From a virus, in the IMG/VR virus record IMGVR_UViG_3300028581_002181, positions 32,001-96,000 of that record: a stretch of 64,000 nucleotides of DNA, one strand, 5' to 3'. Below the pieces are notes generated by a model that was not told the DNA's origin, did no database searches, and saw only the letters and a list, made by a program, of their open reading frames with translations. Below, one piece after another: positions 39,339-55,857 of this stretch. The position numbers and the translations under genes were made by a program. Every line of letters starts with the position of its first letter. The stretch's first letter is position 1.

Positions 39339-39739
39339 TAACTGATTTCGGATCTATCCTTTCCTAATTTGTTCACATTGATGTATCCAGCACCACGTGT
39401 GGCATCTTGTCCTTGCTCCTGCAGCACATTTCTAGTGACTTCTCTAAACCAACCTTCCACTATTTCTTCATTGGTTTCACCTTTGTATCCTGCTGTGATC
39501 AGTTCTTCTATGAAAGCATTGTTCCAATCCAATTCAAAGAATCCATTTCTAATGTTTTCTTTGTTGATGTGAGTTTCCAGCACTGCCACCCAAGGTTTGC
39601 CTGCTTTGGTTGCTGCTTCTTTTTCACGCAACATTGCTTTGTGTGATTCGCTTTTGTTTTCAGTTGTGTCTTCTTTTTTAAATATTTTTTTAACTTTATC
39701 AAATATTCCCATATCTTTTTCCTCCATTATGTACCCCAT
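39338..39739 (-). CDS. Hypothetical protein
   Basis: ORF coupled between queE and rnh. Confidence 0.65.
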   Translation of the reverse strand: MGYIMEEKDMGIFDKVKKIFKKEDTTENKSESHKAMLREKEAATKAGKPWVAVLETHINKENIRNGFFELDWNNAFIEELITAGYKGETNEEIVEGWFREVTRNVLQEQGQDATRGAGYINVNKLGKDRSEIS

Positions 39740-40587
39740 GCATTTTTAAACAGAGGCACCTGTAATCTATCACTGTATCTATATCCCATCTTCATTGCCA
39801 GTTCCGCCACTGTTTTGTTGTTCATATGATAGACACTTTCCACTCCACCCACAGGCATCAGATACACTGATCCTGAGAATCCTGCTTTACGATAATCCTT
39901 CACTGCTTCTATGGCTTCCAGCACATCTGCTTGATTTGCCACCACAAATTTCAAATACACATGACCCACTTCACCATATTCTGCCACCACTTCAGGCAGT
40001 ATGGCTTCTTCACGTTTTTCTCCGCTCACACTCAATTTTGCACTCACAGAGAATGTCACACTGTCTTTGTTTCTGTTGTTGCGTTGCGTCCATTCTTTCA
40101 AATATTTTTTAAAATCCACATGCAACTTTTGAGTGCCATTGGTTTCAAAAGTGATTTCTTTTAGATCCTGCATCTTCACATGTTCCAACACATCTGGATA
40201 TGATCTCTGCCAACCCAGCAATGGTTCTCCGCCTGTGAATATAAAATGTTCATCCACCCATCGTTTATGAGGTAATATCTCCATGGTTCTTTCCACAATG
40301 GCATCTGATGTCAGCATGGGAGATAAATCTTTGAATCGCGGATCCCAAGATGCATATGAATCGCAACCTGTGTTCACCAATGGCAGCTCTTTGTAATCTT
40401 TGAATGGATGCAGTTTGTGCTGTTCAAACACTCGGTCATTCTCATCACTGCGCATGCCTCTGGGCAATCCAAAGCCAGCACAAGTGAAGTTGCAGCCAAA
40501 TGTTCTCAAGAACACCGAAGGCACACCCATGTATCTGCCTTCTCCTTGTATGCTGTAGAATAATTCTGCTATCTTAATCTTGCTCAT
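39727..40587 (-). CDS. queE: 7-carboxy-7-deazaguanine synthase QueE (radical SAM)
   Basis: ELFYSIQGEG...G.PSVFLRTFGCNFTC...CDS (extended Cys spacing), FTGGEP, ETNGT, SAKL, LMPVG, RYSDRLQ. Confidence 0.9.
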   Translation of the reverse strand: MSKIKIAELFYSIQGEGRYMGVPSVFLRTFGCNFTCAGFGLPRGMRSDENDRVFEQHKLHPFKDYKELPLVNTGCDSYASWDPRFKDLSPMLTSDAIVERTMEILPHKRWVDEHFIFTGGEPLLGWQRSYPDVLEHVKMQDLKEITFETNGTQKLHVDFKKYLKEWTQRNNRNKDSVTFSVSAKLSVSGEKREEAILPEVVAEYGEVGHVYLKFVVANQADVLEAIEAVKDYRKAGFSGSVYLMPVGGVESVYHMNNKTVAELAMKMGYRYSDRLQVPLFKNAWGT

Positions 40588-40751
40588 ACTAATTCTTCTG
40601 CAACTCCCAATAGTTCAGCTATTATCAATAATGATCCTGCTGTGATAAAATGTCCGTATATCAATGCCACTCCTGCAATGATTCTAAATCCACTTTTGAT
40701 CAGTGATATGTAAAAATGTCCTCGGCTGGTGTCTTTAGGCTGTATGTTCAT
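40584..40751 (-). CDS. Small membrane protein (55 aa), not in the ORF track
   Basis: Translated by hand: MNIQPKDTSRGHFYISLIKSGFRIIAGVALIYGHFITAGSLLIIAELLGVAEELV; its stop overlaps the queE ATG; GGGAG RBS. Confidence 0.6.
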   Translation of the reverse strand: MNIQPKDTSRGHFYISLIKSGFRIIAGVALIYGHFITAGSLLIIAELLGVAEELV

Positions 40752-40941
40752 GTTTAATTTCTCCCAATGGCGTTGCTGTGGATGAATCAGTGTAATCTAA
40801 ACCTGATTTGTTGTATTCTCTCTGCACAGTTTCTTTAATCATAATGCCATCTCTAATTTTGTATGTGATCAACTCTTGTCTAATCACGTTTGCAGTATCT
40901 CCTTGAAATGCTGCGTAGAATGGTCCATCTTTAGTTTTCAT
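40735..40941 (-). CDS. Hypothetical protein
   Basis: AGGAGA RBS, 68 aa, between folE and queE. Confidence 0.6.
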   Translation of the reverse strand: MKTKDGPFYAAFQGDTANVIRQELITYKIRDGIMIKETVQREYNKSGLDYTDSSTATPLGEIKHEHTA

Positions 40942-40949
40942 TTGTTCTC

Positions 40950-41636
40950 CTATCTTGGTGCAAATTGTTGTTGCAAGTTAATATTATCCATAAATTCTTT
41001 TTTAGTGCCAGCATCATCTTTGAAAGCACCTTTCAGCACAGTAGTCTGTGTGAGTGAACTGTGAGCCATTATGCCTCGGTTTTCACAACAACCATGTATG
41101 GCTTGTATGTAAACTCCAAGATCTCTGGCTCCTGTGGCTTTTTGAATTTCATTGGCAATATCATTACACAATGCCTCTTGCAGAGTGCCTCTTCTAGCAC
41201 ACCATTGTGCTATTCTTGTGTATTTGCTCAAACCTATCACTTTGCCATTGGGAATGATTCCAATGTATGCCACGCCGCTCACTGGTTGATGATGATGACT
41301 GCACACTGATTTTAATTCAGAACGCACCACCAACATGCCTGTGTAAGCATTTTCTCCCACATTGGGAAATGCTGTGGCATCGGGTCTAGATTCATATCTT
41401 CCACTCATTAATTCTTTCAAATACATCTTGGCCAATCTATGTGCTGTATTTTTGCTATTAGGATCGTTGTTGGTATCAATCACTAGACTGTTCAGCACAG
41501 ATGAAAACGATTCAGATAGTTCCTGTTCCAACAGTTCTAATTCACCTGGTTGAATGTGATCTGAAATGTTGTCATCAGCATGATAATTCACGCCAGCCGC
41601 AATCAGTCTTTGTTTAATCTTTTCTGATACTTTCAT
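40950..41636 (-). CDS. folE: GTP cyclohydrolase I FolE
   Basis: TAHRLAKMY, SVCSHHHQP, IGLSKYTRI, RGTLQE, HGCCENRG. Confidence 0.93.
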   Translation of the reverse strand: MKVSEKIKQRLIAAGVNYHADDNISDHIQPGELELLEQELSESFSSVLNSLVIDTNNDPNSKNTAHRLAKMYLKELMSGRYESRPDATAFPNVGENAYTGMLVVRSELKSVCSHHHQPVSGVAYIGIIPNGKVIGLSKYTRIAQWCARRGTLQEALCNDIANEIQKATGARDLGVYIQAIHGCCENRGIMAHSSLTQTTVLKGAFKDDAGTKKEFMDNINLQQQFAPR

Positions 41637-41656
41637 TATACTCCTTATATTGTATT

Positions 41657-41685
41657 ATTTTAACAGATTTGTTCCAGTTTGTCAA
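41657..41685 (-). promoter_or_regulatory. Sigma70-type promoter of folE
   Basis: TTGACA (41685-41680), 17 nt, TGt-TAAAAT (41662-41657), embedded in the 3' end of the upstream gene. Confidence 0.75.
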
Positions 41686-42277
41686 TGATTTGTGCCAAAA
41701 CAATTTGATTACCTTCATCATTGTAATGATTGATCTCCCCTCTGTAGTTAGGCCAGATCATGCTGAAGTCCAACAGATTCCGTTCCTCCACAAAATGATT
41801 ACTGATACCAAAATTGTCTATGTGCAGACTGGTGATTTGCTCCAATCTTCTGTGTATGTCTCTGCGTATCAATCTGTAGATATCTTTTTGGTATTGATCA
41901 TCATAGTGATATCTAAACCAATTTTTAGCAGTATCTAAACTTTTATTAAACCAACTGTTGCGAGATTCAATGTCATTTAGAATGAGATCACAATCTTTGT
42001 GCAATCCTTCTTTGTGTATGGGATGGTTTGGTGTGTGTACTCTACTGGGACTGGTATGACTCACAATCACACAGTTATAATCATGCTGCCACCAAGGATT
42101 GACCATACTGAAATCCATCAGCTGTCGTAGTATTTTGTATTCACTCACCCCTGCCTGTGCAAGATTAGTCACTTGATATTTTGTGGCCAATTGACTGGGC
42201 CATCCTGTGACACCATTGGGCCATTCACAGGCAAAGCTGTCACCAATAATTAAGATTTTTTTTGATTTTTCATCCAT
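41660..42277 (-). CDS. SGNH/GDSL-like protein
   Basis: ILIIGDSF, NLAQAG.S, C-terminal NHYNDEGN. Confidence 0.55.
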   Translation of the reverse strand: MDEKSKKILIIGDSFACEWPNGVTGWPSQLATKYQVTNLAQAGVSEYKILRQLMDFSMVNPWWQHDYNCVIVSHTSPSRVHTPNHPIHKEGLHKDCDLILNDIESRNSWFNKSLDTAKNWFRYHYDDQYQKDIYRLIRRDIHRRLEQITSLHIDNFGISNHFVEERNLLDFSMIWPNYRGEINHYNDEGNQIVLAQIIDKLEQIC

Positions 42278-43077
42278 GGTATATATTTCTCCACAATCAA
42301 TTTGTGATAATCAAAATTGTAATGTTCTTTGTCATGCAATAGATAATCAGTGGGATTCACATTTATATCCAACATGTATTGTTCAATGGTTTTTTCTGCC
42401 ACAGTGGTATTTTGCAATGCACCATAGTATTCCAAACTCTTGGGCCATTTCAATCTATTCATGAAGTTAAACACATAAAGTTTGGCGTTGTGATCTCCAC
42501 ATATCCTATCCCATGCAAACACGTTCAATAGAAAATCACGACGTTCCAAATGTGTGTTCAATTCAAAAAACAATTTGATCTCCATAAAAGTGTTTTTTCT
42601 AATATCTGGCTTCTGTAGTCCTTCTGTTTCACTGATCTGCAAGCCTGGAAATCGATTGTAGTCTTCTGCTGTGGGTTTATTGTATAATTGAACTCTGCCC
42701 TCTTTTACTAATAAATCTAAATATTTTTTCACTGCATCTGTGCTCTGTTCACATTCATGCACAAAATAATCCAATGGCAATGCTTCATCTGTGAGTTTCT
42801 CATCAAAAGCCAACACAAATCTATTCAATGGCGCTAAACAAAGAAACACTTCATCTGTGTCTGGAAATTTATTAAACATGTGTTTCATCCAATCAGTGTA
42901 CATTCTGTTGGTTGTGCCTGCATGTGCATAGATGCACACAGGTTTATTGTTCACTGTGTTGTAAATTTCAGCATAGTTGTTATCATTCCAATAGGTATAA
43001 CTGCCTGGCCCTGTTTTGTCAGGCACAGTGACATATCCACAAGTGTGACTGTCTCCTATGAAAAGTGCTCTGTTCAT
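42250..43077 (-). CDS. SGNH/GDSL-like protein (paralog)
   Basis: LFIGDSHT, YAHAGTTN, C-terminal DKEHYN (DxxH). Confidence 0.55.
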   Translation of the reverse strand: MNRALFIGDSHTCGYVTVPDKTGPGSYTYWNDNNYAEIYNTVNNKPVCIYAHAGTTNRMYTDWMKHMFNKFPDTDEVFLCLAPLNRFVLAFDEKLTDEALPLDYFVHECEQSTDAVKKYLDLLVKEGRVQLYNKPTAEDYNRFPGLQISETEGLQKPDIRKNTFMEIKLFFELNTHLERRDFLLNVFAWDRICGDHNAKLYVFNFMNRLKWPKSLEYYGALQNTTVAEKTIEQYMLDINVNPTDYLLHDKEHYNFDYHKLIVEKYIPWMKNQKKS

Positions 43078-43451
43078 TTTTTATAATTTCCTTTGTGAGG
43101 TATCACATGACGCACACCACCTGTGGGATCCATCATATCTCCTTTGCGTCTTGGAATCAGATGCACGTGTGGATACATGCAAGTCTGCCCTGCTGCTGCT
43201 CCCATGTTGATGCCAATGTTGTAACCATCTATCAATCCTTTTTGAATGTTTTCGTTGCCAATCTTCAGTGCCAATTCAAAACACTTGGTGATATTCTGTT
43301 GACTGGCTTCTCGAGGCACTATGAGTGCGTGTCCTTCTGTGACAGGATATGCATCTTCATACCACACACAATCTTTCAAATCATACACTATTTTTGACCA
43401 AGGAGCTCGGCCTTCTTTTTGTGCTTGTTCCAGAGTGTCTGTGGTGTGCAT
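43074..43451 (-). CDS. HIT (histidine triad) family nucleotide hydrolase
   Basis: DAYPVTEGHALIVPR, NIGIN.GAAAGQT.MYPHVHLIPRR. Confidence 0.9.
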   Translation of the reverse strand: MHTTDTLEQAQKEGRAPWSKIVYDLKDCVWYEDAYPVTEGHALIVPREASQQNITKCFELALKIGNENIQKGLIDGYNIGINMGAAAGQTCMYPHVHLIPRRKGDMMDPTGGVRHVIPHKGNYKK

Positions 43452-43452
43452 G

Positions 43453-43908
43453 TTACCATTGCTCCCAAGGAAACACAATCCATCTAGGATCTTCCAGTTT
43501 GTTGATCACATAACCTTTGTAATCTATTTCTTGATAGGTGCTGGCAGTGTTGTGCAGTATGGCAGCAAACTTCAGTCTTTCAGGCTTGCCAAAATTGTTC
43601 ATAATGTAATTCCAAGTGGCTCCTGTGTCATTGATATCATCCAAGATCAACACCCGTTTCTGCCAAGCATACACCTTTTCCAGTGTGCGGAGATCTGGAA
43701 TATCTGCGTGATCTCGCAAGCTCACATTCAATGTTTGATGCGGTATATCCAATTTGTGCGACAGATATATGGCTGGTATGCAGCCTCCTCTGTTCACACC
43801 CAATATCACTTCAGGCAACCATTGCTGATCCGTCAGTTGTTGATGTATGTTCAACAGTGCTGCACGCATCTGGATCATGGTAAAGTAATTTTTATTGACA
43901 GTTTCCAT
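43453..43908 (-). CDS. Type I phosphoribosyltransferase (purine/xanthine PRT-like)
   Basis: GVNRGGCIPA, PRPP-binding VLILDDINDTGAT, WIVFPWE. Confidence 0.88.
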   Translation of the reverse strand: METVNKNYFTMIQMRAALLNIHQQLTDQQWLPEVILGVNRGGCIPAIYLSHKLDIPHQTLNVSLRDHADIPDLRTLEKVYAWQKRVLILDDINDTGATWNYIMNNFGKPERLKFAAILHNTASTYQEIDYKGYVINKLEDPRWIVFPWEQW

Positions 43909-44259
43909 TTAAAAAGGCATTCTCAGTTGCATCTTGTTGTCATAATCATCCACCACAATGTTGTAGATGTTCTTAAATTTTTGAAACGCAATGTCCAATG
44001 TGGGATATTGTTCGCACATCTCTTTCACTCTGTGCATTTCAGGCATGATGTCTTCCCATAAGATAGGCAGTTTGTAATCTTCAAAATTAACACCTTTCAT
44101 AGCATCTGCTTCAAAATCAATACCTGTGGTAGTGACCGATGCGGCTCCAAATCCATAGGGCACTGATATGGTGGTGGCTGATACTGTGTTGGTGCCTGTG
44201 TTGGCAGTGTAATTGAAATCTGTTTGATAGACATTTTGTTTGATATTTTTATCTTCCAT
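43909..44259 (-). CDS. Hypothetical protein
   Basis: AAAGGA RBS before MEDKNIK (44259). Confidence 0.55.
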   Translation of the reverse strand: MEDKNIKQNVYQTDFNYTANTGTNTVSATTISVPYGFGAASVTTTGIDFEADAMKGVNFEDYKLPILWEDIMPEMHRVKEMCEQYPTLDIAFQKFKNIYNIVVDDYDNKMQLRMPF

Positions 44260-45340
44260 TTGCGATCCTTTGGTAAAGTTGTTTGCCACTAAAAAAGTTT
44301 TCTGCCAATGATATTTTTTGTTTGTGTACCAATGGAGCATATTTCTTGTAGTTGGTCATATAATCTTCTATTTTTCCTTTCAGCAGATGTTTGTGTTTTT
44401 GATAGTGCTCCAAAGATTCTGTCCACGCACTGGGATATTTGAACTCTTCATGAGCCATTTCTTTATAACTTAAACGATCAGGAATCATAGGAATCACTCC
44501 CAATACTGCACCTTCATACCAACTGATGCCCAATGTTTCTTGTAAATTAGCACTGAAAATCAGTTTGGCTTCTGCTAAAAGATTGTGATAGTCATTTTTA
44601 TTTTTGCACACTTCCAAACAAGTCACAAATTCATACTGTGGCATTTCTTTGGCCAAGTCTTGAAATATGTTGTGTTGTTTTTCTGGAGCTAATCTGTGTG
44701 GAAAAAGAATAATGTTCTTTTTTGTGATATTTTTATAACCTGTGAGATCAGCATCCAAATATTCCATGGGCCATCCACATCTCACAATCTTGCCTGTGTG
44801 AAACATATGGTCCACTGTTTCTTTGTCTGCCATTCTACCCAGATCCATCAAATTGTGTAAAAACATATCGATATGAAAATCTGTGGCAAAGTAATTGTGA
44901 TCAAATGATTCAAACAAGCTCTTCTCTGCCCAACGCACCCAAGGTTTATCACCTATCAGTCTGCCCAAAAAGTCTTGTGGATCATAGGATCCTGCGTGCC
45001 ACATGCCACCTATTTTAATTTTTACATTCAATAGTTCTGCCATGTACTTGAGTTGCAACACAGTGGGATTCCAAGCATCTGTGTACAGGAAATAATCACC
45101 ATCTTTGATGTCTCCTGCACTGAACATTTTAGCAATCTGTTCCAATTGTCTACTTTTGTATATGTTGGTGAATGCAAAATTTAAAAAAGCACCCGGAGTG
45201 GTATTTTTCACAGCATCTCCGCCGCTGATCACTTGAACTTCAGTGTTGGTGTGTCTTTTTAATTGAATGGGTAGATATTTTTTCCATTGCTTGGTGTATC
45301 TAGTTTCTACTTCTTCTAGATCCACAATATAAATCTTCAT
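44249..45340 (-). CDS. GT-B (GT4-like) glycosyltransferase
   Basis: ILFPHRLAPEKQ and the E-x7-E signature QETLGISWYEG...P. Confidence 0.75.
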   Translation of the reverse strand: MKIYIVDLEEVETRYTKQWKKYLPIQLKRHTNTEVQVISGGDAVKNTTPGAFLNFAFTNIYKSRQLEQIAKMFSAGDIKDGDYFLYTDAWNPTVLQLKYMAELLNVKIKIGGMWHAGSYDPQDFLGRLIGDKPWVRWAEKSLFESFDHNYFATDFHIDMFLHNLMDLGRMADKETVDHMFHTGKIVRCGWPMEYLDADLTGYKNITKKNIILFPHRLAPEKQHNIFQDLAKEMPQYEFVTCLEVCKNKNDYHNLLAEAKLIFSANLQETLGISWYEGAVLGVIPMIPDRLSYKEMAHEEFKYPSAWTESLEHYQKHKHLLKGKIEDYMTNYKKYAPLVHKQKISLAENFFSGKQLYQRIANGR

Positions 45341-45348
45341 GCACTACC

Positions 45349-45759: not shown

Positions 45760-45801
45760 TATTTAGGTTTATAGTATAACAACCTTTTCAATGTTTGTCA
45801 A
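45760..45801 (-). promoter_or_regulatory. Dual promoter: sigma70 TTGACA-17-TATACT plus late core CTAAATA
   Basis: TTGACA 45801-45796, TGtTATACT ending at 45773, CTAAATA 45766-45760. Confidence 0.75.
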
Positions 45802-46309
45802 TGTCCACAGGATAGTCGCCTTTGTATTCACTCCAATCTGTGTAGGTTTTTTTGGTCATTAACTTGTCCAAATCATGTGTCCAAACTCCTGAATTGGTTG
45901 CTCCCCAAGTGACATCGTCCAGTTTGATCACTGTGTTGGCATTGAAGTTTTTAATATTAGGTATTTTTACTGATATCATGTTGATAAAATGATTGTTCTT
46001 ATGCCAATTCATTCTTGATACCATTTCTGCATACTGCACATCATAATCCAATGTGACCCAATGTCCCAAATCTAATAAATTTTTAATAATGTTATTCCAA
46101 TCTGTCCAATTTTCTTCTGTCACAGGAGTAAAACTTTGACTGGTGCCAAGATATACATGTCTTACATTAGTTTTTTGAGTGTGTCGCACAATGTCTGCCA
46201 GTGCTGGCGTGCCTACAACAAACAGAGTCTTTTCACCTTTCATAGCAGTGTTCTCCACTTCTTTGCCTATGAAAAATTTTACTTTTTTTCTTGATTGTGT
46301 GTTCAACAT
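45788..46309 (-). CDS. Hypothetical protein within the deazaguanine cluster
   Basis: GGAGA RBS, TAATG coupling; VRHVYLGTSQSF, WVTLDY, MISVKIP. Confidence 0.65.
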   Translation of the reverse strand: MLNTQSRKKVKFFIGKEVENTAMKGEKTLFVVGTPALADIVRHTQKTNVRHVYLGTSQSFTPVTEENWTDWNNIIKNLLDLGHWVTLDYDVQYAEMVSRMNWHKNNHFINMISVKIPNIKNFNANTVIKLDDVTWGATNSGVWTHDLDKLMTKKTYTDWSEYKGDYPVDIDKH

Positions 46310-47217
46310 TATTTTCTCCAATCTATATACCCTCTTGCATAGCCATTGGTTCTATTTGTAGCATCTGCAAAAGCATCACGCCATTCAGTGCTTCTGCTGT
46401 AACCTTTGGTCCAAAAGTTAGAAACATCCAGTTTGCCTGTGCTAATAAAATCCACTGCTTCACGCATGCATTCTATAAATTTTTTATTTCTAGGACTGGG
46501 AAATCCCACAGTCACAGCATTCCATAACAGATGAGCAAAATTAGTGCGAACTGAATCTGTTTTTTCAGCAGCCAGTATTAATAATGCTTCAGCATTGAAC
46601 ATATTTCTATCAAACACTTCTGATTTAGTATTCAAATCTATTATAACATCAAACAGTCCTTCAGCATTGTGGGTAAGTTTTTCACCCCAAAATGCTTTGT
46701 TGTGATGGCCCAACACAGTGACATCAAACTGATAATTTTTTATTTGCAAATAGGTATACACCACATAAGACAGAAATCCACTGCCTATGATCAATAATCT
46801 ATTATTATTGCCTGCTTTGTTTTTGATTGCTGTTTCAAACTGTTTGATCACATTGATGCCACAAGCCACAGGCTCCACAATGTATTTGGGATCTGCTGTG
46901 GGCACTTTAACATAGGTTTCTGCATCACAATTGTACTGATCAGCATAAGCAGGTTCTCCTCTGGTGGCCACAAAATCTCCCACTTGAACATCATTTACTT
47001 CACTGCCCACATGAGTCACTTGACCCAATCCTTCATGTCCTTGCATACTCAATGGCAATGTTTTGAATTTACCCAGCATCATGTCCACATCACTGCGACA
47101 CACTCCAGTCATAATATTTTTTACTCTAATTTGTTCAGGATTTAATTCAGGAATATCTATACTGCCTTCATGGAACATGCCATCTCCTTTGGTATATAAC
47201 AGTTTAGTTTCAGTCAT
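46309..47217 (-). CDS. Zn-dependent medium-chain dehydrogenase/reductase
   Basis: GVCRSD, GHEGLG, VGDFV, EPVACG, IIGSGFL; lacks the structural-Zn loop. Confidence 0.8.
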   Translation of the reverse strand: MTETKLLYTKGDGMFHEGSIDIPELNPEQIRVKNIMTGVCRSDVDMMLGKFKTLPLSMQGHEGLGQVTHVGSEVNDVQVGDFVATRGEPAYADQYNCDAETYVKVPTADPKYIVEPVACGINVIKQFETAIKNKAGNNNRLLIIGSGFLSYVVYTYLQIKNYQFDVTVLGHHNKAFWGEKLTHNAEGLFDVIIDLNTKSEVFDRNMFNAEALLILAAEKTDSVRTNFAHLLWNAVTVGFPSPRNKKFIECMREAVDFISTGKLDVSNFWTKGYSRSTEWRDAFADATNRTNGYARGYIDWRK

Positions 47218-48097
47218 TGATTGTATTATGAATCCAAACATCATGTTCTTTGTGTTGGTTCCAAAACTCCTCATTGTTAATATTATTGAAAACATCTTGA
47301 ATCATAGTGGCATAAACTGGTTCAGGACACAGTCCCAGTTCAAAACTTTTAACTAATTTTTCTCTCTGATAGCAATGGATTGCTCTGTCATCTTTGTCCA
47401 TGCTGCGCCAATCAGCAGTTAGAATATATTTTTTCTTACCATCATTCAGTATGATTTCATTCCAATCATCCACATTATATGTGCCATCCAAATTGATCGA
47501 ACCATATTCTGTGCTAATGAGTTGATCCAGTTTCCAATTTTGTTTAACAATATTGCTCTCTATTTGAAATTCTTTGTAGTGGTTAGGATTCATATAAATG
47601 AATATGCTCAATAGATGTGGCATAAGATCTCTGCTGACTCCACCAAATGATAATTTTTTAGTGGTAAACCAGCTGCCTGGTGCTGGCACTCTATCACGAT
47701 TGATCCAATTGATATGAATCACTTCTGCTGCTGCTGTTCTGATATTGAATTCTTCTTCCCATGTTCTCCACATGTTGTTTTTGATCATTATGAATCTAGT
47801 TTGAGGATATGTGAGTTGTAGTGTCTGCCATCTTTTGGCATTGAGTACTCCTGGTTTTTCCACAAACACTATTCGACAATGTTTGGCAATCTTTTGAGCA
47901 ATTGTATCATGTGTATAGTTGGGAGTGCAGATGAACGCAGCATCCAACAGAGGATGTGCATACAAGGCTGTGTCAAGATTGGCAAATGTGGCCTGCTTGC
48001 TTTGATCTGTGTCCATGGTGATCACTTCATGCCCCAACTGTGTCAAAATTTTTGCATACAGTTGCCCCATGCCTAAACCTATCACCAATGTTTTCAT
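47210..48097 (-). CDS. Gfo/Idh/MocA family oxidoreductase
   Basis: VIGLGMG, ICTPNYTH, VFVEKP, GGVSRDLMPH. Confidence 0.85.
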   Translation of the reverse strand: MKTLVIGLGMGQLYAKILTQLGHEVITMDTDQSKQATFANLDTALYAHPLLDAAFICTPNYTHDTIAQKIAKHCRIVFVEKPGVLNAKRWQTLQLTYPQTRFIMIKNNMWRTWEEEFNIRTAAAEVIHINWINRDRVPAPGSWFTTKKLSFGGVSRDLMPHLLSIFIYMNPNHYKEFQIESNIVKQNWKLDQLISTEYGSINLDGTYNVDDWNEIILNDGKKKYILTADWRSMDKDDRAIHCYQREKLVKSFELGLCPEPVYATMIQDVFNNINNEEFWNQHKEHDVWIHNTIND

Positions 48098-48288: not shown

Positions 48289-48289
48289 G

Positions 48290-49753
48290 CTATACCTCCT
48301 CAAATAAGTTAGAAAATTGTGTTGAAGCATTCACTGTTTTTTTGCCTGTGGCGCCTCTGGTGCCTATGATACTCATCCAAAATCTATTGTATTCCTCAAT
48401 CACTGCTTCTGCTGTGTCTCTGCTGTCTGTGGCAAATATTGCTTCCACTATGTCTTTGAATGCCACTTTATCAAATTTTTCTTCCACCAACATGCGTGGA
48501 GTTAATCCTGCGTCATACTGTCTGTTGGCTTCCTGCACAGCATTGATATGTGTCCAAACATTGTGTGCCATTTGTAATGTGTAACTGAATGAATCCCAAG
48601 ATGTTTTGGGATCACCACCCACTTTGTTTTTGTCTCCTGGCGCATAGCAGGTCACATCTTTCAACTGTAATCTTTGACTGATTGGGCTATCTTGAAAATT
48701 ATCAAATATCTTTTCTTGCAACACAGCATCTCTAAACATTCTAGTGTCACCAGCATATTTTTTATCATCTATGCTGGCAGCCATTCTATATGACCATTTT
48801 TCTCTGTCTTTGATATCCACTTCTGTGTAAATTTGTCCATTAGCAGATGCTAGGAATGGAGAAGCACAATCAAAACTCATAGTGAAATTTTCATTGTGAT
48901 ATTTTCGCACAGCTCTTTGTATGTCTGTCAACAACACTGCCCATTCCAGTTTGGATGTGCCTAGGAAGTGCATCCAATCATGCACACCTTTTTCTAATAA
49001 GCCATCAAATCTCAATGCCACCAATCTTTTCAATATAAGATGCACATCACACATGTTCTGACCGCCCATTGCCCAACCATTAAAATGAGTGGTGGGATAT
49101 TTTTTAGGATCACAGTAATCTTTCATCTGTTGATACCAATCATCTGCTTGTTGAAAGTTTTCACCTTGCAACACATTTAAAAACTTACAAGCACCCGTTC
49201 TAGTCTTCATGAAGTAATCATTGTTGATTCTGGTGCCATCCACTGCTTCTTGATAGGAATTGATATTGCTGGCTTTGGCACCTTCTGGAGAACGTGAAAC
49301 CCATGCTGGAATATCCAATATCATACCATAGTCCATGTTGGCATCCATCCAAGTGAGCACCTGTTCTCGCTTCTTCTTGGCTCGGGGACAAGTGGGATCT
49401 TTCCAATTGCCTTCCCATACTCCTTTACCAATCTGAAACCCTCCTGAATCACCCAGTACAAAACTGGTTTTTCTATCTCGGTTTCTTATGATGTCATCTC
49501 TGGCACTAAATTTGTCCATGTTCAAGTCAGCATGACCTGCACTGTACAAATGCCATCTGTAATGAAAATATGTGTTGGTGGGCACAAGATAATTCATGCC
49601 TTCTATGCCATGATTAAAAGCAGCCGGAATCCTATGAGGCAGAATATAATCTTTCTCATGTCTGGCTTTGCCTATATCTCTCGCATAGAAACTGCTCAAC
49701 GCCGGCAGAAAAATAGCGTAATCCTTTTGTTGTGCTGTTAAGTCAGTGTGCAT
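48290..49753 (-). CDS. dpdA: DpdA/TGT-family 7-deazaguanine transglycosylase-like protein
   Basis: TGT catalytic motifs GDSGGFQ, ILDIP, NVLQG, GWAMGG, HFLG, SFDCASP; co-located with folE, queE and the QueD-like gene. Confidence 0.75.
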   Translation of the reverse strand: MHTDLTAQQKDYAIFLPALSSFYARDIGKARHEKDYILPHRIPAAFNHGIEGMNYLVPTNTYFHYRWHLYSAGHADLNMDKFSARDDIIRNRDRKTSFVLGDSGGFQIGKGVWEGNWKDPTCPRAKKKREQVLTWMDANMDYGMILDIPAWVSRSPEGAKASNINSYQEAVDGTRINNDYFMKTRTGACKFLNVLQGENFQQADDWYQQMKDYCDPKKYPTTHFNGWAMGGQNMCDVHLILKRLVALRFDGLLEKGVHDWMHFLGTSKLEWAVLLTDIQRAVRKYHNENFTMSFDCASPFLASANGQIYTEVDIKDREKWSYRMAASIDDKKYAGDTRMFRDAVLQEKIFDNFQDSPISQRLQLKDVTCYAPGDKNKVGGDPKTSWDSFSYTLQMAHNVWTHINAVQEANRQYDAGLTPRMLVEEKFDKVAFKDIVEAIFATDSRDTAEAVIEEYNRFWMSIIGTRGATGKKTVNASTQFSNLFEEV

Positions 49754-49770
49754 AAATTTACTTGTGTAAA

Positions 49771-50499
49771 CTATTTGGTCTGTGCTGGCAATATATAATT
49801 GTATTCAGCGATACCACTGTCCACAGTTAATTGCATAGCACCTTGATCACTAAGACTCATTTTGATCTTGCCATCAAGATTCAATATGCTGATTACCTGT
49901 TGAATGGGCCAACTCCAACCTTGTTTCAATTCACCCACCACATTGGCTTGGAATATAAAACTTCCTGCATGCGAATTAGCATCTCCAAAGTAAAACATCA
50001 AATTCTTGTTTTCAGTTTTTACTGTGAACACAGTTTCTTCTGTGTGTGCTGCTGCCTGCAGTTTTAATCTTTGAATACTGGCCAGTGTGGGTTCAAATTC
50101 TATGCTCCAAGCTGTGCCTTTAAACTTGATTGATTTAAGTTTTTCATTGATGATTTCAGTGTTCATAAATCTGTAATCATTTTGGAAATCACCTGATGAA
50201 TTTTCAAAGTGAATATGAGTTGGAATTTCCACTCCATTGCGTGTGGCTTTGACCACATTTAATTTAGCGTCTTTTTGATACTCAGGACATTTCAAATGCA
50301 ATGCCAGTTTGTCCAAGTTAGGCATACCAAATGTACCTGTAAATTCAAATACTTTTTTATTGGTTGTTGCTGAAAGAATAACTGATCTGTCTTCAGCCAT
50401 ACTTTCAATTTTGGTTTTTTCTTCGTTGGTAACTTTTACTAGACTCAAAAATCCTAATTGATGAGTGTGTGCTACCACGTCTTGTAAGATGTCTTTCAT
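49771..50499 (-). CDS. Probable DNA polymerase sliding clamp (gp45-like)
   Basis: 242 aa with a repeating beta-alpha pattern, near PolB; context-based call. Confidence 0.6.
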   Translation of the reverse strand: MKDILQDVVAHTHQLGFLSLVKVTNEEKTKIESMAEDRSVILSATTNKKVFEFTGTFGMPNLDKLALHLKCPEYQKDAKLNVVKATRNGVEIPTHIHFENSSGDFQNDYRFMNTEIINEKLKSIKFKGTAWSIEFEPTLASIQRLKLQAAAHTEETVFTVKTENKNLMFYFGDANSHAGSFIFQANVVGELKQGWSWPIQQVISILNLDGKIKMSLSDQGAMQLTVDSGIAEYNYILPAQTK

Positions 50500-50523
50500 T
50501 TTGTGTTCTCCATTGTTGTGTTC

Positions 50524-50552
50524 ATTATATTTAGGCCTTAGTCAGAAGTCAA
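50524..50552 (-). promoter_or_regulatory. Dual promoter: sigma70 TTGACT-17-TATAAT overlapping late core CTAAATA
   Basis: TTGACT 50552-50547, TATAAT 50529-50524, CTAAATA 50534-50528; GGAGA RBS. Confidence 0.78.
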
Positions 50553-51305
50553 GTGATATTTGTTTTTAATGTACTCAATCACATTAACTTTTGGTTCCCA
50601 ACCTAAATCTCTTAATTCTTTGATATTGGCACAGTTGTCCATTCTTTCGAACTCATCACCTTTAACTGATGCATAATTCGTTATGCCTGCCGAATCCACC
50701 AAAGTTTTTAAATTGTTGCTGATTCCACAGCCCACGTCTATTACTCCTGTGATGTCTTTGGTCATCAATAGATCTATGGCAGACACAATATCACTCACAT
50801 GTATGAAATCTCTGGTATGATCAGTGATGTACTGTATGTTATTTTTGAATAATTTAGACATAAACATATCTGCACGGCCATCTTCAGCCCACACAGTGGT
50901 AAATCTTAATCCCAAACTATTTTTTGGTGCAATTTTTTCCATAGCAAATTTACTGAATCCATAAGGATTCAATTCTGGTTCGGCAGCTGAACTGCTGCTG
51001 GCATATATTATCTTTGTGTTGGGAAAGGCAGCAAATAATTTTTGACTTGCCAACACATTATTTTGCCAATATTTTATAGGATTCTGTAAACTGTCTCGCA
51101 CAGAAGCTATACCAGCCAAATGTATCACTAGATCCACATCATAATTTAAATCACAAGTGAGTAGATCTTGCTGATTGTTTCGATCCAATCCAATCACTGT
51201 GTGTGCAAATTCCAGCACTCCATTTCGCATCACTCTCACTGTGCTCAAATAATCACGCAGATATGACCCTATAAATCCTAGATGTCCTGTCAATAGTATT
51301 TTCAT
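50538..51305 (-). CDS. NAD-dependent nucleotide-sugar epimerase/dehydratase
   Basis: TGHLGFIGS, VIHLAG, YASSS, YGFSK (YxxxK), LRFTTV, RDFIHV.D. Confidence 0.9.
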   Translation of the reverse strand: MKILLTGHLGFIGSYLRDYLSTVRVMRNGVLEFAHTVIGLDRNNQQDLLTCDLNYDVDLVIHLAGIASVRDSLQNPIKYWQNNVLASQKLFAAFPNTKIIYASSSSAAEPELNPYGFSKFAMEKIAPKNSLGLRFTTVWAEDGRADMFMSKLFKNNIQYITDHTRDFIHVSDIVSAIDLLMTKDITGVIDVGCGISNNLKTLVDSAGITNYASVKGDEFERMDNCANIKELRDLGWEPKVNVIEYIKNKYHLTSD

Positions 51306-51841
51306 TTTTTCTTCACTCCCAGTTGTTTAAAAACTTGTTGCACACATTTGGCCTGATAGTAACAGTCAGCCAATGCATTGTGTAGACTGCTCTGCATGCT
51401 CTTTCTAGGATCCTCAGGCATCAGATCAAACAGTGTGCGACTGTCTCTAATCTGCCAATAGTTGAAAGGCACAGGTGTACGAGCTTGTTCATATAAATTT
51501 TGTATGATGGCATAGTCAAACAATGGACCTTGACACCACAGCTGATCCAATCCCACACACCATTTGTTGAATTCTTTGGCAAAGTCTGCAATGATCACTC
51601 GATCTGTGTCTCCCAATGCTTCATCACGTATCTCGGGTGCCTGTCTGCCCCACCATTCGATGGTGCCTTCATCCACAGTTCTACCCAATGCAGTCTGTTC
51701 ATCCACATTCAATCTCCAGTATCTGCCTTCATAAGGTTCCGAATCTGAGTGTGGATCAAACTTGATAGCGCCCACAGTCAATATGGCAGCATCTGGTCGA
51801 GTGCCTAATGTTTCTAAATCTACCATGCCGTATCTTGCCAT
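51302..51841 (-). CDS. DEDD 3'-5' exonuclease (DexA-like)
   Basis: MVDLETLG, GPLFD, WQIRDSRT, HNALADC. Confidence 0.85.
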   Translation of the reverse strand: MARYGMVDLETLGTRPDAAILTVGAIKFDPHSDSEPYEGRYWRLNVDEQTALGRTVDEGTIEWWGRQAPEIRDEALGDTDRVIIADFAKEFNKWCVGLDQLWCQGPLFDYAIIQNLYEQARTPVPFNYWQIRDSRTLFDLMPEDPRKSMQSSLHNALADCYYQAKCVQQVFKQLGVKKK

Positions 51842-54514
51842 CTAATCTCCCAAGTCAAATAATGTGTTGAATGTGTTGCCTGTTTCTGTGCTTTGAATAT
51901 CCCAATCCAGCACTCCCAACAGGTTGCCCAATTTACTATCGATCACTGTGGTCTCCATGGCTGCATGATCAAAAGGTAATTCTTTAAACCATTGTGGTAT
52001 TCTCAATTGATCTGTGGGATAGGCCACACTGGTATAATCTAACGGGTTATTTTTAAGTTTGCACACAATCACTTTCATACCATCCACAATCTCTATACTG
52101 TATCTGTCATTGTTCATGCGTTTGAGTGTGTTCCAATTGATGCTGGCTCTCACATGTCCTGGCATGTTGGCTTTGCCTTGTGCTTTTTCTTTCTTTTGAT
52201 AATCTGCCACATTGTTGGCACGTTTGGGTGAGCCTTTTTCCCAACCTGGACGCAGTTTGAATTCATTTCTAAATGTGCTGATTCTTTCCAGCACTGCTTT
52301 CTCATCCGATTTGGTCAACACCATCAGTAATATCTCACTCAAAAAATCCTGCACGAACACCGGAGTGTCCGAACGTTTGAGATCCAATCCCATGGCTTTT
52401 ACTTTGCCTGGTTTTCCTTCTACATCCATACGATTGCCTTCCAATTCATATATCAGCACAGCATATCTTTTTTTAGTGATAAACAATCCTGTTTCACTGA
52501 TGGATTCACGACCTGCTTGAATCACTTCTGCTCTTGTTTTTGGACAATGAAATGCTTCACTCATGAATGCTTTAAAACTGTTGTTGACTTCTTCAGCCAC
52601 TTGATCATACAGTCTAATCACACTCTCTTTGCTCCAAGGAATCAATCCAGCATCAATATCTTTCTTTAAAACTTTGTAAGCACTAAAATAAGCAGAGTCT
52701 GTGTCACCATATATCACAGCATCACCCAGATGATCGTATGTGCCTGTGATCACTTCGTTGATCTTGGCTGCCATGTGTTTGCTGATGGTTCTACCTGTGA
52801 GCGTGGTGGATTGACCTATGCGTTTATCAAAGAATCTACAGCCTGGATTCAATATGGCACCATACAGCGAATTCAAATTAATTTTTTTGACCAATTGTCT
52901 TTTGTCCCAAAATTCAATTTCTGCTTGATTGCTGGCATGTTGTGCTTTCTTTTTCATGGCTTGCATTTCTGTTCTTTCCTGATACCATGTTTTCAACAAG
53001 CCAGGAATAACTCCTTCAAACTCTGTGGTAAACATGGTGCCATTGGCACTGATCATGATGGGATTTCTGCTTTCAAATATCATTTTGTAAATTTCTGCAC
53101 CACTTTTTACCTCGGTTCTACCATCTTCCCAATCAATGGTGATGGGCTGATCTCGTCTCTGAGTCATCACATATTCATACTCCAAACTGCCAAATTTGTT
53201 TTCCCATGCTGCTGCAAATGATTTGCCTTGCAGATTAATCTGATCCTGTAGGAATGCTTCAGTGTAGGTGGGTCTCAATTGTCCTACCACACATTCAGGA
53301 GCCATGTTGAGTGCTCTGATCACACTAGGATACAGTGAATTCAAGTCCATGGATCCTATCCAGTCATGCAGTCCTTTTTTGGGAAATGCCACATAAGCAC
53401 CTGCTGCAGTGGTGTCATCACCCTCTGCTCTGTGTGGTCTATTGGGCACTTGCAATCCTCTTTTGTGTGCTTCATTGATAATGGCTTGCTCAGTCACGGC
53501 CACTGCTCCCATAGTGGTTTGCATCAACACAGTGTTGGCGTGTGCCAGTTCATTGCTGAGTTCTAAAAATTTAAGTTTTTTATCCAAATTGTTCAGCAGT
53601 TGCACGTCCTGTCTATTGTATTCCACAAAAGTTTTAAAATCTTGGTTGTACAATTGATCCAAGGTGCCTTCATACACTGTTTTCTTCTCTCCCAACTCCA
53701 TTTCACCTATGGCATCCAATCTGTATGTGTGGCGTTCTTCATAGGTATATTTTCTATACAGTTCCAAACTGTCTATGTGTACTCTGCCCACTAGATCATA
53801 GGTTTCTTGCTCACGTCCATACTTTTCAAAAGTTCTTTTTTTGGGCATCTGTGACCACAAACAAAAACGTCTGGTGTCATCTTTGCTCAATACTTTGCTG
53901 ACTCTATTCACTAGATAAGGCATATCATAGCCTTCTGAGTTCCATCCACTCAGCACATCCACATCTTCTATGATGTCCAAGAATGCCTGCAGCATGTCTG
54001 CTTCACGCTCATACAGATACAAATTTTCAATGTGCTTGGTCTGCTCTCGGGCTTGCTCCATGTTTAATGTCTTGGGAATCAGTGCAAAAGTAACCATGCT
54101 GTTGATCCATTGTAGATACACAGTGATGGCAGTGACTGGCATGAAGGGGTCTGAGGGATCAGCGAATCCTTTTTCAGGATCAAAGTCTGCTTCTATGTCA
54201 AAAAATGCCACATTCAGTTTGGGAGCATCGTGGTTGAGATAATTGGCACTGAGACATTGAAATATGGGATTGATGTCGGATTCAAATAATTTTTTGTTCC
54301 TATTGATGGCCAATTCTTTGTGAAAGTCTTTGGTGTTTTTGCTGACGATCCTGCTGAGACTGTTGCCATAGATACTTCTAAATTTGCCATTGGCATCTTC
54401 ATAAAAAAATGTGTATCTAATGGGATATTCTTTGTAGATTCTTTTGCCTTCTTTGCGTTCTACCACGCGAATGATATCGTGATTTCTATCGAAAAATGCG
54501 TCTATGTAACTCAT
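51842..54514 (-). CDS. polB: Family B DNA polymerase (T4 gp43-like)
   Basis: FDIE, GWNSEGYD, DLNSLYPS, KINLNSLYG, YGDTDS, KKRY. Confidence 0.97.
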   Translation of the reverse strand: MSYIDAFFDRNHDIIRVVERKEGKRIYKEYPIRYTFFYEDANGKFRSIYGNSLSRIVSKNTKDFHKELAINRNKKLFESDINPIFQCLSANYLNHDAPKLNVAFFDIEADFDPEKGFADPSDPFMPVTAITVYLQWINSMVTFALIPKTLNMEQAREQTKHIENLYLYEREADMLQAFLDIIEDVDVLSGWNSEGYDMPYLVNRVSKVLSKDDTRRFCLWSQMPKKRTFEKYGREQETYDLVGRVHIDSLELYRKYTYEERHTYRLDAIGEMELGEKKTVYEGTLDQLYNQDFKTFVEYNRQDVQLLNNLDKKLKFLELSNELAHANTVLMQTTMGAVAVTEQAIINEAHKRGLQVPNRPHRAEGDDTTAAGAYVAFPKKGLHDWIGSMDLNSLYPSVIRALNMAPECVVGQLRPTYTEAFLQDQINLQGKSFAAAWENKFGSLEYEYVMTQRRDQPITIDWEDGRTEVKSGAEIYKMIFESRNPIMISANGTMFTTEFEGVIPGLLKTWYQERTEMQAMKKKAQHASNQAEIEFWDKRQLVKKINLNSLYGAILNPGCRFFDKRIGQSTTLTGRTISKHMAAKINEVITGTYDHLGDAVIYGDTDSAYFSAYKVLKKDIDAGLIPWSKESVIRLYDQVAEEVNNSFKAFMSEAFHCPKTRAEVIQAGRESISETGLFITKKRYAVLIYELEGNRMDVEGKPGKVKAMGLDLKRSDTPVFVQDFLSEILLMVLTKSDEKAVLERISTFRNEFKLRPGWEKGSPKRANNVADYQKKEKAQGKANMPGHVRASINWNTLKRMNNDRYSIEIVDGMKVIVCKLKNNPLDYTSVAYPTDQLRIPQWFKELPFDHAAMETTVIDSKLGNLLGVLDWDIQSTETGNTFNTLFDLGD

Positions 54515-54527
54515 ATGTTCCCATCCA

Positions 54528-54575
54528 TGTCATTTGAGGCTGACACATACCAAACAATCGCTTATGGCCGATTAT
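54528..54575 (-). promoter_or_regulatory. Tandem 5-bp-stem/8-nt-loop hairpins in the polymerase leader (putative translational operator)
   Basis: On -: AATCG-GCCATAAG-CGATT and TGTCA-GCCTCAAA-TGACA, the second ending 13 nt before the ATG. Confidence 0.5.
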
Positions 54576-54578
54576 GCC

Positions 54579-54827
54579 TTACCTAATATAGTATAACAGT
54601 ATACCACCTATGCCCACACATGTCAACACAATGTTGGTCACTATGAGTGCCGATTCTCGCCAAATCAATGCCACCATCAACCAAAACACGCCACCCAAAG
54701 CCAGCAGTGCCGGACCCATGGGGTATAGTTCTGGAAAACCAGCATTCACAAATGTGCCCACTATCAGTATGGCAGTGGCAATCCATTTGAGGATTTGATC
54801 TAGCTTATTTGGTTTCATGTCTGTCAA
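54579..54827 (-). CDS. Small 3-TM membrane protein
   Basis: Three hydrophobic segments; WIATAILIVG...W...W. Confidence 0.7.
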   Translation of the reverse strand: MTDMKPNKLDQILKWIATAILIVGTFVNAGFPELYPMGPALLALGGVFWLMVALIWRESALIVTNIVLTCVGIGGILLYYIR

Positions 54828-55857
54828 AAATTCTATTGATCACATTGTTCACTCTCACAAAATGAGCACACTTGGGCATGTCTTTGATGCGTCTGGCTCC
54901 AATGTAGGTGCAGGTGCTTCGCACACCACCCAATATCTGTTCCACTGTGTCTTTCACAGAACCTCTGTCTTCCAACAGCACAGTCTTGCCTTCGGTGCCT
55001 CTGTAGCCATCTTTCCTTGCACCGTGTTGTTCAAATGCTGATTCCGAACTCATGCCGTAGAACACTCGCTTGCCATCTTGCAGTTCCAATTCTGATTCGT
55101 CATGTGCTGCCAGCATGCCTCCCAGCATCACCATGTGAGCACCTGCGCCTAATGCTTTGGCAATGTCTCCTGGCTGTGTGCAACCACCATCTGCTATGAT
55201 GTGTCCGCCCACGCCGTTGGCAGCATCTGCACATTCTATCACTGCTGAAAATTGTGGCACTCCCACTCCGGTCTGTGTTCTTGTGGTGCACACTGATCCT
55301 GGACCTATGCCAATCTTGACCACGTCTGCTCCGTTGATAATCAATTCTTCCACCATTTCTGGTGACACCACGTTGCCTGCTATGATGGTCTTGTCGGGAA
55401 ATTCTGATCTAATTCTTTTGACAAAGTCCACAAACTGCTCGTGATATGCGTTGGCCACATCTATGGTGATCATGTTGACATCTGGGTATTTTACCATGAC
55501 CTTTTTCAAGGTTTGATAGTCGGGAGAATTGTTGTCCCATATGGCACCTGTGCCTGTGCATGCACTCACATATTGTAATTTTAATCCAGTGCCCATTGCT
55601 CTGTCCCAATCTTCAATGGTGTAATGTTTTCTTAACACAGTCAGCAGTTTGTATTCCTGCAATGCTCTGGCCATGCTGAATGTGCCCACGCCATCCATGT
55701 TGCTGGCCACTATGGGCACAAATGCAATCTGTTGTTTGCTATTACGAAATGTGAAATCTCTGGTCATGTCCACATCACGTCTTGAACTCAGTGTGGATCT
55801 TTTGGGTTTTAATAGTACGTCTGCGTAATCAAGATGTATGTTATAATCTATTCTCAT
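54805..55857 (-). CDS. guaC: GMP reductase
   Basis: DYADVLLKPKRSTLSSR, ASNMDGVG, IDVANAY, KIGIGPGSVCTTR, IIADGG, FYGMSS, EGK, GGVRSTCTY. Confidence 0.93.
   Translation of the reverse strand: MRIDYNIHLDYADVLLKPKRSTLSSRRDVDMTRDFTFRNSKQQIAFVPIVASNMDGVGTFSMARALQEYKLLTVLRKHYTIEDWDRAMGTGLKLQYVSACTGTGAIWDNNSPDYQTLKKVMVKYPDVNMITIDVANAYHEQFVDFVKRIRSEFPDKTIIAGNVVSPEMVEELIINGADVVKIGIGPGSVCTTRTQTGVGVPQFSAVIECADAANGVGGHIIADGGCTQPGDIAKALGAGAHMVMLGGMLAAHDESELELQDGKRVFYGMSSESAFEQHGARKDGYRGTEGKTVLLEDRGSVKDTVEQILGGVRSTCTYIGARRIKDMPKCAHFVRVNNVINRIFDRHETK

Follow-up and report, generated by a model that had tools for sequence, protein, structure and literature searches.

A DpdL-type 7-deazaguanine DNA modification locus with predicted glycosylation and purine-salvage branches in a marine jumbo phage

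A 64,000-nucleotide stretch of viral DNA (hereafter the window), comprising bases 32001-96000 of the 116,456-base IMG/VR record IMGVR_UViG_3300028581_002181, carries among its replication genes a cluster that we are inclined to read as a DpdL-type 7-deazaguanine DNA modification system to which branches for glycosylation and purine salvage have been added. A 7-deazaguanine DNA modification system woven into the replication operon had been proposed for this locus from its letters alone, and that proposal is supported here by a transglycosylase fold, by the presence of DpdL, FolE and QueE, and by gene context. Its companion claim also stands: the additional enzymes fall outside the described routes to dPreQ0 (2′-deoxy-7-cyano-7-deazaguanine), dG+ (2′-deoxyarchaeosine), dADG (2′-deoxy-7-amido-7-deazaguanine) and dDG (2′-deoxy-7-deazaguanine). 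DpdL-type deazaguanine modification of DNA is a known kind of system, whereas the predicted sugar-bearing product would be new, as it is described in none of the literature searched.

The record has an estimated CheckV completeness of about 32%. Relatives carrying the same cluster have genomes of 306-344 kb (completeness 87-99%), and the source phage is therefore taken to be an uncultured marine jumbo phage of roughly 350 kb. It is distantly related to the Pseudomonas jumbo phage PA5oct (Wroclawvirus) and to phage Phosso.

Pathway enzymes and the transglycosylase-fold protein

The class of the pathway follows from a gene that had been read as QueD-like but encodes DpdL instead. Specifically, its motif LGYPHRHMF fits the LxxxHRHxF signature of DpdL, a QueD paralogue for which decarboxylation of 7-carboxy-7-deazaguanine (CDG) is proposed but unproven (Cui et al. 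2023, PMC10516641), rather than the CxxxHGH of QueD. Residues H44, R45, H46 and F48 do not vary across 18 marine relatives, and tblastn aligns the protein to the DpdL of Acidovorax phage ACP17 (54.5% identity, E 3e-36) and to CGPG_00067 of Cellulophaga phage phiST (34%, E 3e-9). There is no Pfam match even at E 10 and no meaningful phmmer match among PDB sequences. Comparison with two canonical QueD proteins by hhalign gives a weak relationship (E 0.006-0.007), and for the phiST DpdL a 99.9% HHpred match to the QueD fold has been described (PMC10516641). The PA5oct DpdL (EST35_0318; L001 17763-18140) reads LGYPHFHYF, in which HFH replaces the HRH of the marine relatives.

With DpdL in place of the supposed QueD, the pathway falls into the dDG class and must obtain a true QueD from elsewhere. 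A PF01242 search of the 116-kb record finds no canonical QueD. Four related genomes each carry one copy, 10-17 kb downstream of the transglycosylase-like gene, and PA5oct has two, elsewhere in its genome; the QueD of the source phage is thus probably encoded in the unseen part of its genome or supplied by the host. The canonical QueD match of the relatives, as in a 316-kb phage (L087 1453-1968), has CSTLHGY in place of CxxxHGH and is followed by a glycosyltransferase-like open reading frame (ORF). QueC is found neither in the 116-kb record nor in PA5oct. Relatives yield partial PP-loop matches only, far from the cluster; one 211-residue ORF (in genome G003; E 2.4e-8, over the family cut-off) could, judging by this match, be a real QueC. 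The remaining enzymes of CDG synthesis, FolE and QueE, are encoded within the cluster. The NCBIfam models for FolE reach E 8e-41 but stay under their curated cut-offs (139.9 bits versus 202), and those for QueE give E 1e-14 and weaker, all far under the cut-offs.

The gene earlier labeled dpdA/TGT-like encodes a protein with a confidently modeled tRNA-guanine transglycosylase (TGT) fold and two invariant catalytic aspartates, although the label draws no support from Pfam. Indeed, the protein has no match in Pfam (PF01702 is not reached at E 0.01), in PHROGs or among PDB sequences. The accepted DpdA proteins of ACP17, of Xanthomonas phage X1 and of phiST likewise have no Pfam TGT match, so that this absence does not rule out membership in the DpdA family. 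The AlphaFold 2 (AF2) model has a predicted local distance difference test score (pLDDT) of 93. When this model is submitted to Foldseek, the top 50 matches are all TGTs (E about 2e-6), and VIA returns bacterial, archaeal and eukaryotic TGTs as structural matches, with an alignment to 2ash at Z 19.0 and a root-mean-square deviation of 4.4 over 302 residues. The motifs GDSGGFQ and SFDCASP correspond to the catalytic Asp motif and to the second Asp, the nucleophile. Across 55 diverse members of the family, which comprises 979 clusters at 50% identity, D102, S103, G105 and D295 are invariant.

More distant comparisons point in the same direction. The family profile matches mainly the Z. mobilis TGT among PDB sequences, weakly, with DSGGfQ aligned to the motif of that enzyme. 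Profile alignment by hhalign yields 96.7% with the ACP17 DpdA, where FDC aligns to YDS, 96.0% with the X1 DpdA, and a weak 76.7% with phiST DpdA3; BLASTP against the ACP17 DpdA and phiST DpdA3 is not significant. From its modeled fold and catalytic residues, the enzyme is predicted to exchange guanine in phage DNA.

Conserved core and variable sugar-tailoring genes

To the DpdL pathway the cluster adds a glycosyltransferase (GT). We scored each cluster gene in 80 related viral loci, which represent 25 lineages when the TGT-like proteins are at most 90% identical and at least 8 kb of downstream sequence is available. DpdL, FolE, the GT and a 177-residue protein (unk177) form a core, whereas the sugar-tailoring and purine-handling genes vary (Table 1). 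Whether the extra genes co-occur with the TGT-like gene, a question raised by the sequence-only reading, can be answered for the GT and unk177, each of which accompanies that gene in 22 of the 25 lineages. The clustering of DpdL, GT and TGT-like genes is far above chance, and they occur together in dozens of phage lineages. Likewise, among 50,697 phage records in GenBank, 22 encode this GT, 17 of them with DpdL no more than 3 kb away; DpdL itself occurs in 29 records, and the same GT is found in 17 of these. The GT and DpdL are no more than 3 kb apart in PA5oct, Phosso, ACP17, X1/BUDD and BCSR5. Searches of marine metagenomes return at least 8,000 homologues of the GT and at least 7,900 of the TGT-like protein.

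The earlier designation of the GT as GT4 draws its support from homologues, the protein's own Pfam match being sub-threshold. The X1 homologue matches Glycos_transf_1 (E 8e-12, 45.5 bits), and the window protein is 44% identical to EST35_0317 of PA5oct (E 6e-99) and 36% identical to the ACP17 protein (E 9e-71). By our reading of the alignment, its E-x7-E motif, QETLGISWYE, is kept in both. Its Atlas neighbors are viral, and PF00534 occurs in 29% of one cluster; phmmer finds no meaningful match among PDB sequences. A gene of 342-353 residues that follows dpdA in ACP17 and PA5oct was considered as a counterpart of the Zn-dependent dehydrogenase in the window, but it matches the GT instead. No hydroxymethylase of the thymidylate-synthase fold is found in the record or in three relatives with 87-99% completeness, which makes a hydroxymethyl-pyrimidine an unlikely target for the GT.

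The second additional core gene, unk177, had been listed simply as unknown. It indeed has no recognizable fold, but it must now be regarded as a conserved member of the core. Its product is 29% identical to that of an ORF upstream of ACP17 dpdA, and its alignment contains 22 invariant columns, many of them acidic (including E17, E19, D88, K129, D131 and D132). With an AF2 model of pLDDT 89.7, Foldseek returns nothing at E<=0.001, and the best match of a wide VIA search (Z 6.9) is at background. Atlas gives no usable match, and hhalign finds nothing when the protein is compared with phiST CGPG_00066, PA5oct EST35_0320 or the Phosso 'glycosylase'.

Three representative loci are without this GT (L070, L083 and L050). 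We scanned the ORFs that follow DpdL in four loci with a weak or missing GT match (L069, L083, L079 and L017; L050 was left out). In L069, a sister of L070, another GT of the Glycos_transf_1 family follows DpdL and is itself followed by a short-chain dehydrogenase/reductase (SDR) resembling GDP-mannose dehydratase. In L083, the corresponding region (11967-14660) encodes an enzyme of the UDP-glucose/GDP-mannose dehydrogenase family and then a dioxygenase resembling 4-hydroxyphenylpyruvate dioxygenase (HPPD) and glyoxalase. The GT of L079 is just 21% identical to that of the window and precedes an SDR (Pfam Epimerase E 5e-48), and L017, which does have the GT, includes a double 2-oxoglutarate-Fe(II) oxygenase in its cassette (15634-16803). 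Thus, sugar-nucleotide chemistry adjoins DpdL in every lineage examined, with enzymes that differ between lineages. The other enzymes that occupy the slot after DpdL in L017 and L083 hint at several different end products.

The shell also varies between close relatives. In four loci (L004, L005, L008 and L027) the core genes are 94-98% identical, whereas identity falls to 71-72% for the SDR, 72-75% for the Gfo/Idh/MocA oxidoreductase (Gfo), 61% for orf68 and 75% for the 143-residue ORF unk143. This greater divergence of the sugar genes suggests allele replacement between strains. Gfo is found only together with the gene for the Zn-dependent medium-chain dehydrogenase/reductase (MDR), in 10 of the 25 lineages, and the SDR adjoins the GT in other lineages and in PA5oct. 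For the two proteins that had been called SGNH-like, a GDS block near the N terminus (IGDSHT and IGDSFA) and a DxxH-like block near the C terminus (DKEHYN and INHYND) can be recognized by eye, but neither protein has a Pfam or PHROG family match, even at E 10.

The cluster is encoded entirely on the minus strand, its genes closely spaced and overlapping slightly. Every gene named in the sequence-only reading was found where it had been placed on that strand, although rnh (38337-39338) falls outside the span of 39727-55857 assigned to the cluster, and the list lacked a 78-residue ORF between the TGT-like gene and Gfo. Promoter-like sites occur on the minus strand only, match 11-12 of 12 positions, and mostly have an extended -10 TG; their total is not above shuffled expectation, and only their placement in short gaps between genes is informative. 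No minus-strand terminator-like site was found inside the cluster. Among the replication proteins, PolB shares 42-49% identity with the corresponding polymerases of Phosso, Atu_ph07 and Rak2-like jumbo phages, the exonuclease is Rv2179c-like (Pfam), and the clamp assignment is borne out by 32% identity to a Phosso protein annotated as a sliding clamp, with no meaningful phmmer match among PDB sequences. Downstream of the FEN/RNase H gene, the region at 34102-36492 (minus strand) encodes an AAA-type ATPase (phrog_1297, E 4e-105) and a 412-residue protein that matches an 'HNH endonuclease' PHROG (E 2e-113).

Table 1. Features of the cluster and its surroundings in the window, with their occurrence among the 25 lineages
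Feature	Position (strand)	Lineages of 25	Basis or remark
QueE-like radical SAM CDG synthase	39727..40587 (-)		phrog_2076 E 1e-48
FolE, GTP cyclohydrolase I	40950..41636 (-)	23 (core)	Pfam E 5e-41
Two SGNH-like proteins, 275 and 205 residues	41660..43077 (-)	4-6 (variable)	motif reading by eye
HIT-family nucleotide hydrolase or transferase	43074..43478 (-)	11 (variable)	Pfam HIT E 7e-12; HinT-like
Purine phosphoribosyltransferase (PRTase), xanthine-guanine phosphoribosyltransferase (XGPRT)-like	43453..43908 (-)	12 (variable)	Pfam E 1e-10
unk143, unknown 143-residue ORF after GT	43909..44340 (-)	3	no family match; weakly conserved
GT-B (GT4-like) glycosyltransferase	44249..45340 (-)	22 (core)	one promoter-led unit with DpdL
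DpdL, QueD paralogue, proposed CDG decarboxylase, 133 residues	45349..45750 (-)	25 (core)	motif LGYPHRHMF
unk177, conserved 177-residue protein, core partner of TGT-like gene and DpdL	45788..46321 (-)	22 (core)	conservation
Zn-dependent MDR dehydrogenase-like protein, paired with Gfo	46309..47295 (-)	11 (variable)	ADH_N E 6.5e-11; GVCRSD and GHEG motifs
Gfo/Idh/MocA oxidoreductase, variable sugar-tailoring gene	47210..48097 (-)	10 (variable)	Pfam E 1e-8
TGT-fold base-exchange enzyme, 487 residues, predicted DNA guanine transglycosylase	48290..49753 (-)		predicted fold, catalytic residues, context
Sliding-clamp-like protein	49771..50499 (-)		phrog_12062; first gene of unit containing TGT-like gene
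Short SDR nucleotide-sugar epimerase/dehydratase	50538..51305 (-)	13 (variable)	Pfam Epimerase E 9e-20; phrog_540 E 6.5e-40
Family B DNA polymerase PolB	51842..54514 (-)		Pfam
GMP reductase GuaC, lineage-specific	54805..55857 (-)	2 (variable)	NCBIfam equivalog NF003470, 475 bits vs cut-off 397
Small HAD-like phosphatase, 97 residues	55854..56147 (-)		DIDNT (DxDxT); phrog_1238 E 7e-27; polynucleotide kinase (PNK)-phosphatase phrog_415 E 1e-5
Flavin-dependent Trp-halogenase family protein, 536 residues	56712..58322 (-)		PF04820 E 5e-76
Promoter-like sites in short gaps	before PolB 54626; clamp 50552-50524; DpdL 45801; FolE 41685 (-)
Promoter-like site, 12/12	56134-56106 (-)		within annotated start of HAD-like ORF, upstream of guaC

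Proposed route and alternatives

In the route that we propose, FolE acting on GTP, a canonical QueD from another part of the genome or from the host, and QueE would produce CDG by the established pathway, and DpdL would decarboxylate CDG to 7-deazaguanine, as proposed in the literature. The TGT-fold enzyme would then excise guanine from phage DNA after replication and insert the deazaguanine base. This step is favored by the fold, the catalytic residues and the gene context, and by the properties of PA5oct DNA, which is refractory to restriction enzymes whose sites contain G and is attacked by END nucleases that sense hypermodified DNA, its base not being named (PMC12191111). Subsequently, the GT-B enzyme may glycosylate the base, either once it is in DNA or ahead of its insertion; the donor sugar would be remodeled by the SDR and the Gfo/MDR pair, with the SGNH-like and HAD-like proteins perhaps contributing. 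We infer this step from conserved linkage alone. Judging from its sequence, the 97-residue HAD-like ORF resembles a capless phosphatase, which possibly acts on a sugar phosphate or nucleotide. The unk177 protein would be a further, obligatory partner in the route.

The last step concerns the guanine that is released. The XGPRT-like PRTase, joined in the source lineage by GMP reductase, might take up this guanine and feed it to the purine pool. By removing free guanine, they would drive the reversible exchange in the forward direction and replenish the purine pool from which FolE is supplied. The nearest NCBIfam model for the PRTase is xanthine PRTase (6e-12, under its cut-off), and the PA5oct PRTase is EST35_0321. 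Not every one of the extra enzymes would thus be part of one hypermodification route: the GT and unk177 belong to the core, but PRTase, HIT and guaC are variable and better fit purine salvage.

From this scheme comes a broader and more tentative prediction, which may well prove wrong: glycosylated 7-deazaguanine may be present in the virion DNA of the whole family, including PA5oct, ACP17, X1 and Phosso, with a strain-specific sugar and with unk177 needed to make or attach it. The sugar would be expected to differ between strains because the tailoring genes are exchanged, or evolve more quickly than those of the core.

Several observations weigh against the proposed route. The window GT scores 17.1 bits against Glycos_transf_1, under the cut-off of 26.4. 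The TGT-like protein lacks the canonical Zn-binding CxCxxC...H cluster of TGTs, with one Cys in residues 300-420, and no column for such a cluster is conserved in the family alignment when read by eye. The decarboxylase activity of DpdL is only proposed, not proven (PMC10516641), and with about one third of the genome in the record, the presence of QueD or QueC in the source phage cannot be judged. A sugar on deazaguanine is reported for none of these phages, and plain 7-deazaguanine has no hydroxyl, so that the sugar acceptor atom is not evident. Because plain dDG is formed in phiST, which encodes neither the GT nor unk177, the GT is not needed for dDG. Finally, salvage by PRTase and GuaC is itself an inference, and enzymes of the same classes act on deazapurine nucleotides in tubercidin biosynthesis.

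The phiST precedent gives rise to the alternative that survives best, which we nonetheless consider rather unlikely. The phage would make plain dDG, and the GT and sugar enzymes would serve a virion protein, the host envelope or another metabolite, being merely linked to the modification genes in the early replication operon. Full replacement by dDG in a phage without a GT, the variability of the sugar genes across lineages, and the many unrelated tailoring enzymes carried by jumbo phages are all compatible with this view. Mere linkage is harder to reconcile with a GT that is found no more than 3 kb from DpdL in six phage groups with otherwise different genes, that is present in 22 of the 25 marine lineages, and that shares one promoter-led unit with DpdL. 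Moreover, in two of the three GT-less lineages (the two examined), another GT or a UDP-sugar enzyme occupies the same spot.

A pre-replicative, tubercidin-like route is less probable still. Here the PRTase would join CDG or 7-deazaguanine to phosphoribosyl pyrophosphate, DpdL, GuaC and the HIT or HAD enzymes would process the resulting nucleotide, and PolB would incorporate 7-deazapurine deoxynucleoside triphosphates, unless a toxic nucleoside is the end product. Although QueC-less tubercidin clusters do combine the same enzyme classes as the PRTase, GuaC, HIT and HAD proteins of the window, these are secondary-metabolite clusters without nucleic-acid insertion enzymes (10.64898/2026.04.15.718813), whereas a TGT-fold enzyme whose catalytic pair is intact occurs throughout the family studied here. 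In addition, guaC and the PRTase are present in only 2 and 12 of the 25 lineages, respectively, and GuaC scores as an ordinary GMP reductase equivalog.

There is little reason to believe that the TGT-like enzyme modifies host or phage tRNA rather than DNA: its nearest solved structures are all tRNA-guanine transglycosylases, but no tRNA genes were found in the window, the gene lies between the clamp and DpdL in a replication operon, PA5oct with the same module has reported G-modified DNA, the pathway would end at CDG or 7-deazaguanine, neither of which is a tRNA base, and profile comparison links the protein to phage DpdAs.

Equally hard to credit is a role in the source strain for the adjacent halogenase, which would halogenate C7 of the decarboxylated deazaguanine to give a halogenated DNA base. 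Its gene lies just upstream on the same strand, and its product is intact, with GxGxxG, the Lys in IFKYA, and FIEPME. On decarboxylation an electron-rich pyrrole carbon would become accessible, and marine organisms are known to contain halogenated 7-deazapurines. However, WxWxIP is altered to GWIFKIG. None of the 80 related loci has the gene, not even relatives with 94-97% identity, and for this reason we rejected it as a core pathway member; its membership in the system is doubtful. The protein is 23-29% identical to halogenases of cyanophages (including Syn10) and of pelagiphage HTVC008M; the family is common in such phages but has no member among the phage records that match the window DpdL or TGT-like protein, and the genomes of the halogenase-bearing phages were not searched for deazaguanine genes.

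To our knowledge, all glycosylated DNA bases described so far are pyrimidines, and all DNA deazaguanines carry small groups at C7. If the proposed glycosylation is correct, then a sugar-bearing deazaguanine would define a class of DNA base not seen before and would be the first sugar-bearing purine in DNA. It would also explain why these phages are sensed by nucleases directed against hypermodified DNA, and the GT (acting on DNA or on the base) and its 177-residue partner would be new enzymes for DNA labeling. The pairing of PRTase with GMP reductase suggests a general answer to how full replacement of guanine might be driven and how the excised guanine might be disposed of. The family is very abundant in marine metagenomes, and the four cultured phages with the same module make direct testing possible.

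Relation to known systems

A close cultured counterpart is PA5oct, whose TGT-like protein, GT and DpdL are 34%, 44% and 54% identical to those of the window and whose genes follow the same order: PolB, clamp, TGT-like, GT, DpdL, short SDR, PRTase, QueE and RNase H. ACP17 shares the unk177-like gene, DpdA, GT, DpdL and QueE, in the order QueD, FolE, unk177-like, DpdA, GT, DpdL, QueE. Both differ from the window in having neither the Gfo/MDR pair nor the SGNH-like genes, HIT, guaC or the halogenase. X1 has GT, DpdA, DpdL and QueE in succession, and Phosso has clamp, DpdL, GT, FolE and QueE, its TGT-like gene being located in another part of the genome. When ACP17 dpdL and dpdA were expressed in E. 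coli no dDG was formed, and the authors, who nowhere mention a glycosyltransferase, suggest that unknown enzymes are needed (PMC10516641). This failure fits a need for further partners.

Clusters for tubercidin/toyocamycin and huimycin in Streptomyces and Kutzneria join FolE, QueD and QueE to a PRTase, GMP reductase, decarboxylase and hydrolase, and the huimycin enzyme HuiG is a natural-product precedent for a GT that glycosylates a 7-deazaguanine base (10.64898/2026.04.15.718813). These clusters have no transglycosylase, make free nucleosides, and use a UbiD-family decarboxylase rather than DpdL. In the phage loci, by contrast, no member is more conserved than the TGT-fold insertion enzyme, the proposed decarboxylase falls outside the UbiD type, and guaC is rare.

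Phage phiST, in which mass spectrometry revealed full replacement by plain dDG (PMC10516641), resembles the window in its QueC-less CDG route (FolE, QueD, QueE, DpdL and DpdA3), in a DpdL with LxxxHRHxF, and in a distant TGT-fold transglycosylase encoded beside polymerase genes. It differs in having a MazG-like gene and no GT, unk177, sugar enzymes or PRTase, and its DpdA3 has 259 residues compared with the 487 of the window protein.

With regard to glycosylation, a close parallel is the glucosylation of hydroxymethylcytosine in T-even phages by alpha- and beta-glucosyltransferases. There, too, a base is replaced and a sugar is then transferred from a nucleoside-diphosphate sugar, and the sugars vary between related phages. 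The T-even system nevertheless starts from a pyrimidine whose hydroxymethyl group is made at the nucleotide level, whereas the system proposed here would start from a purine analogue that enters DNA through base exchange.

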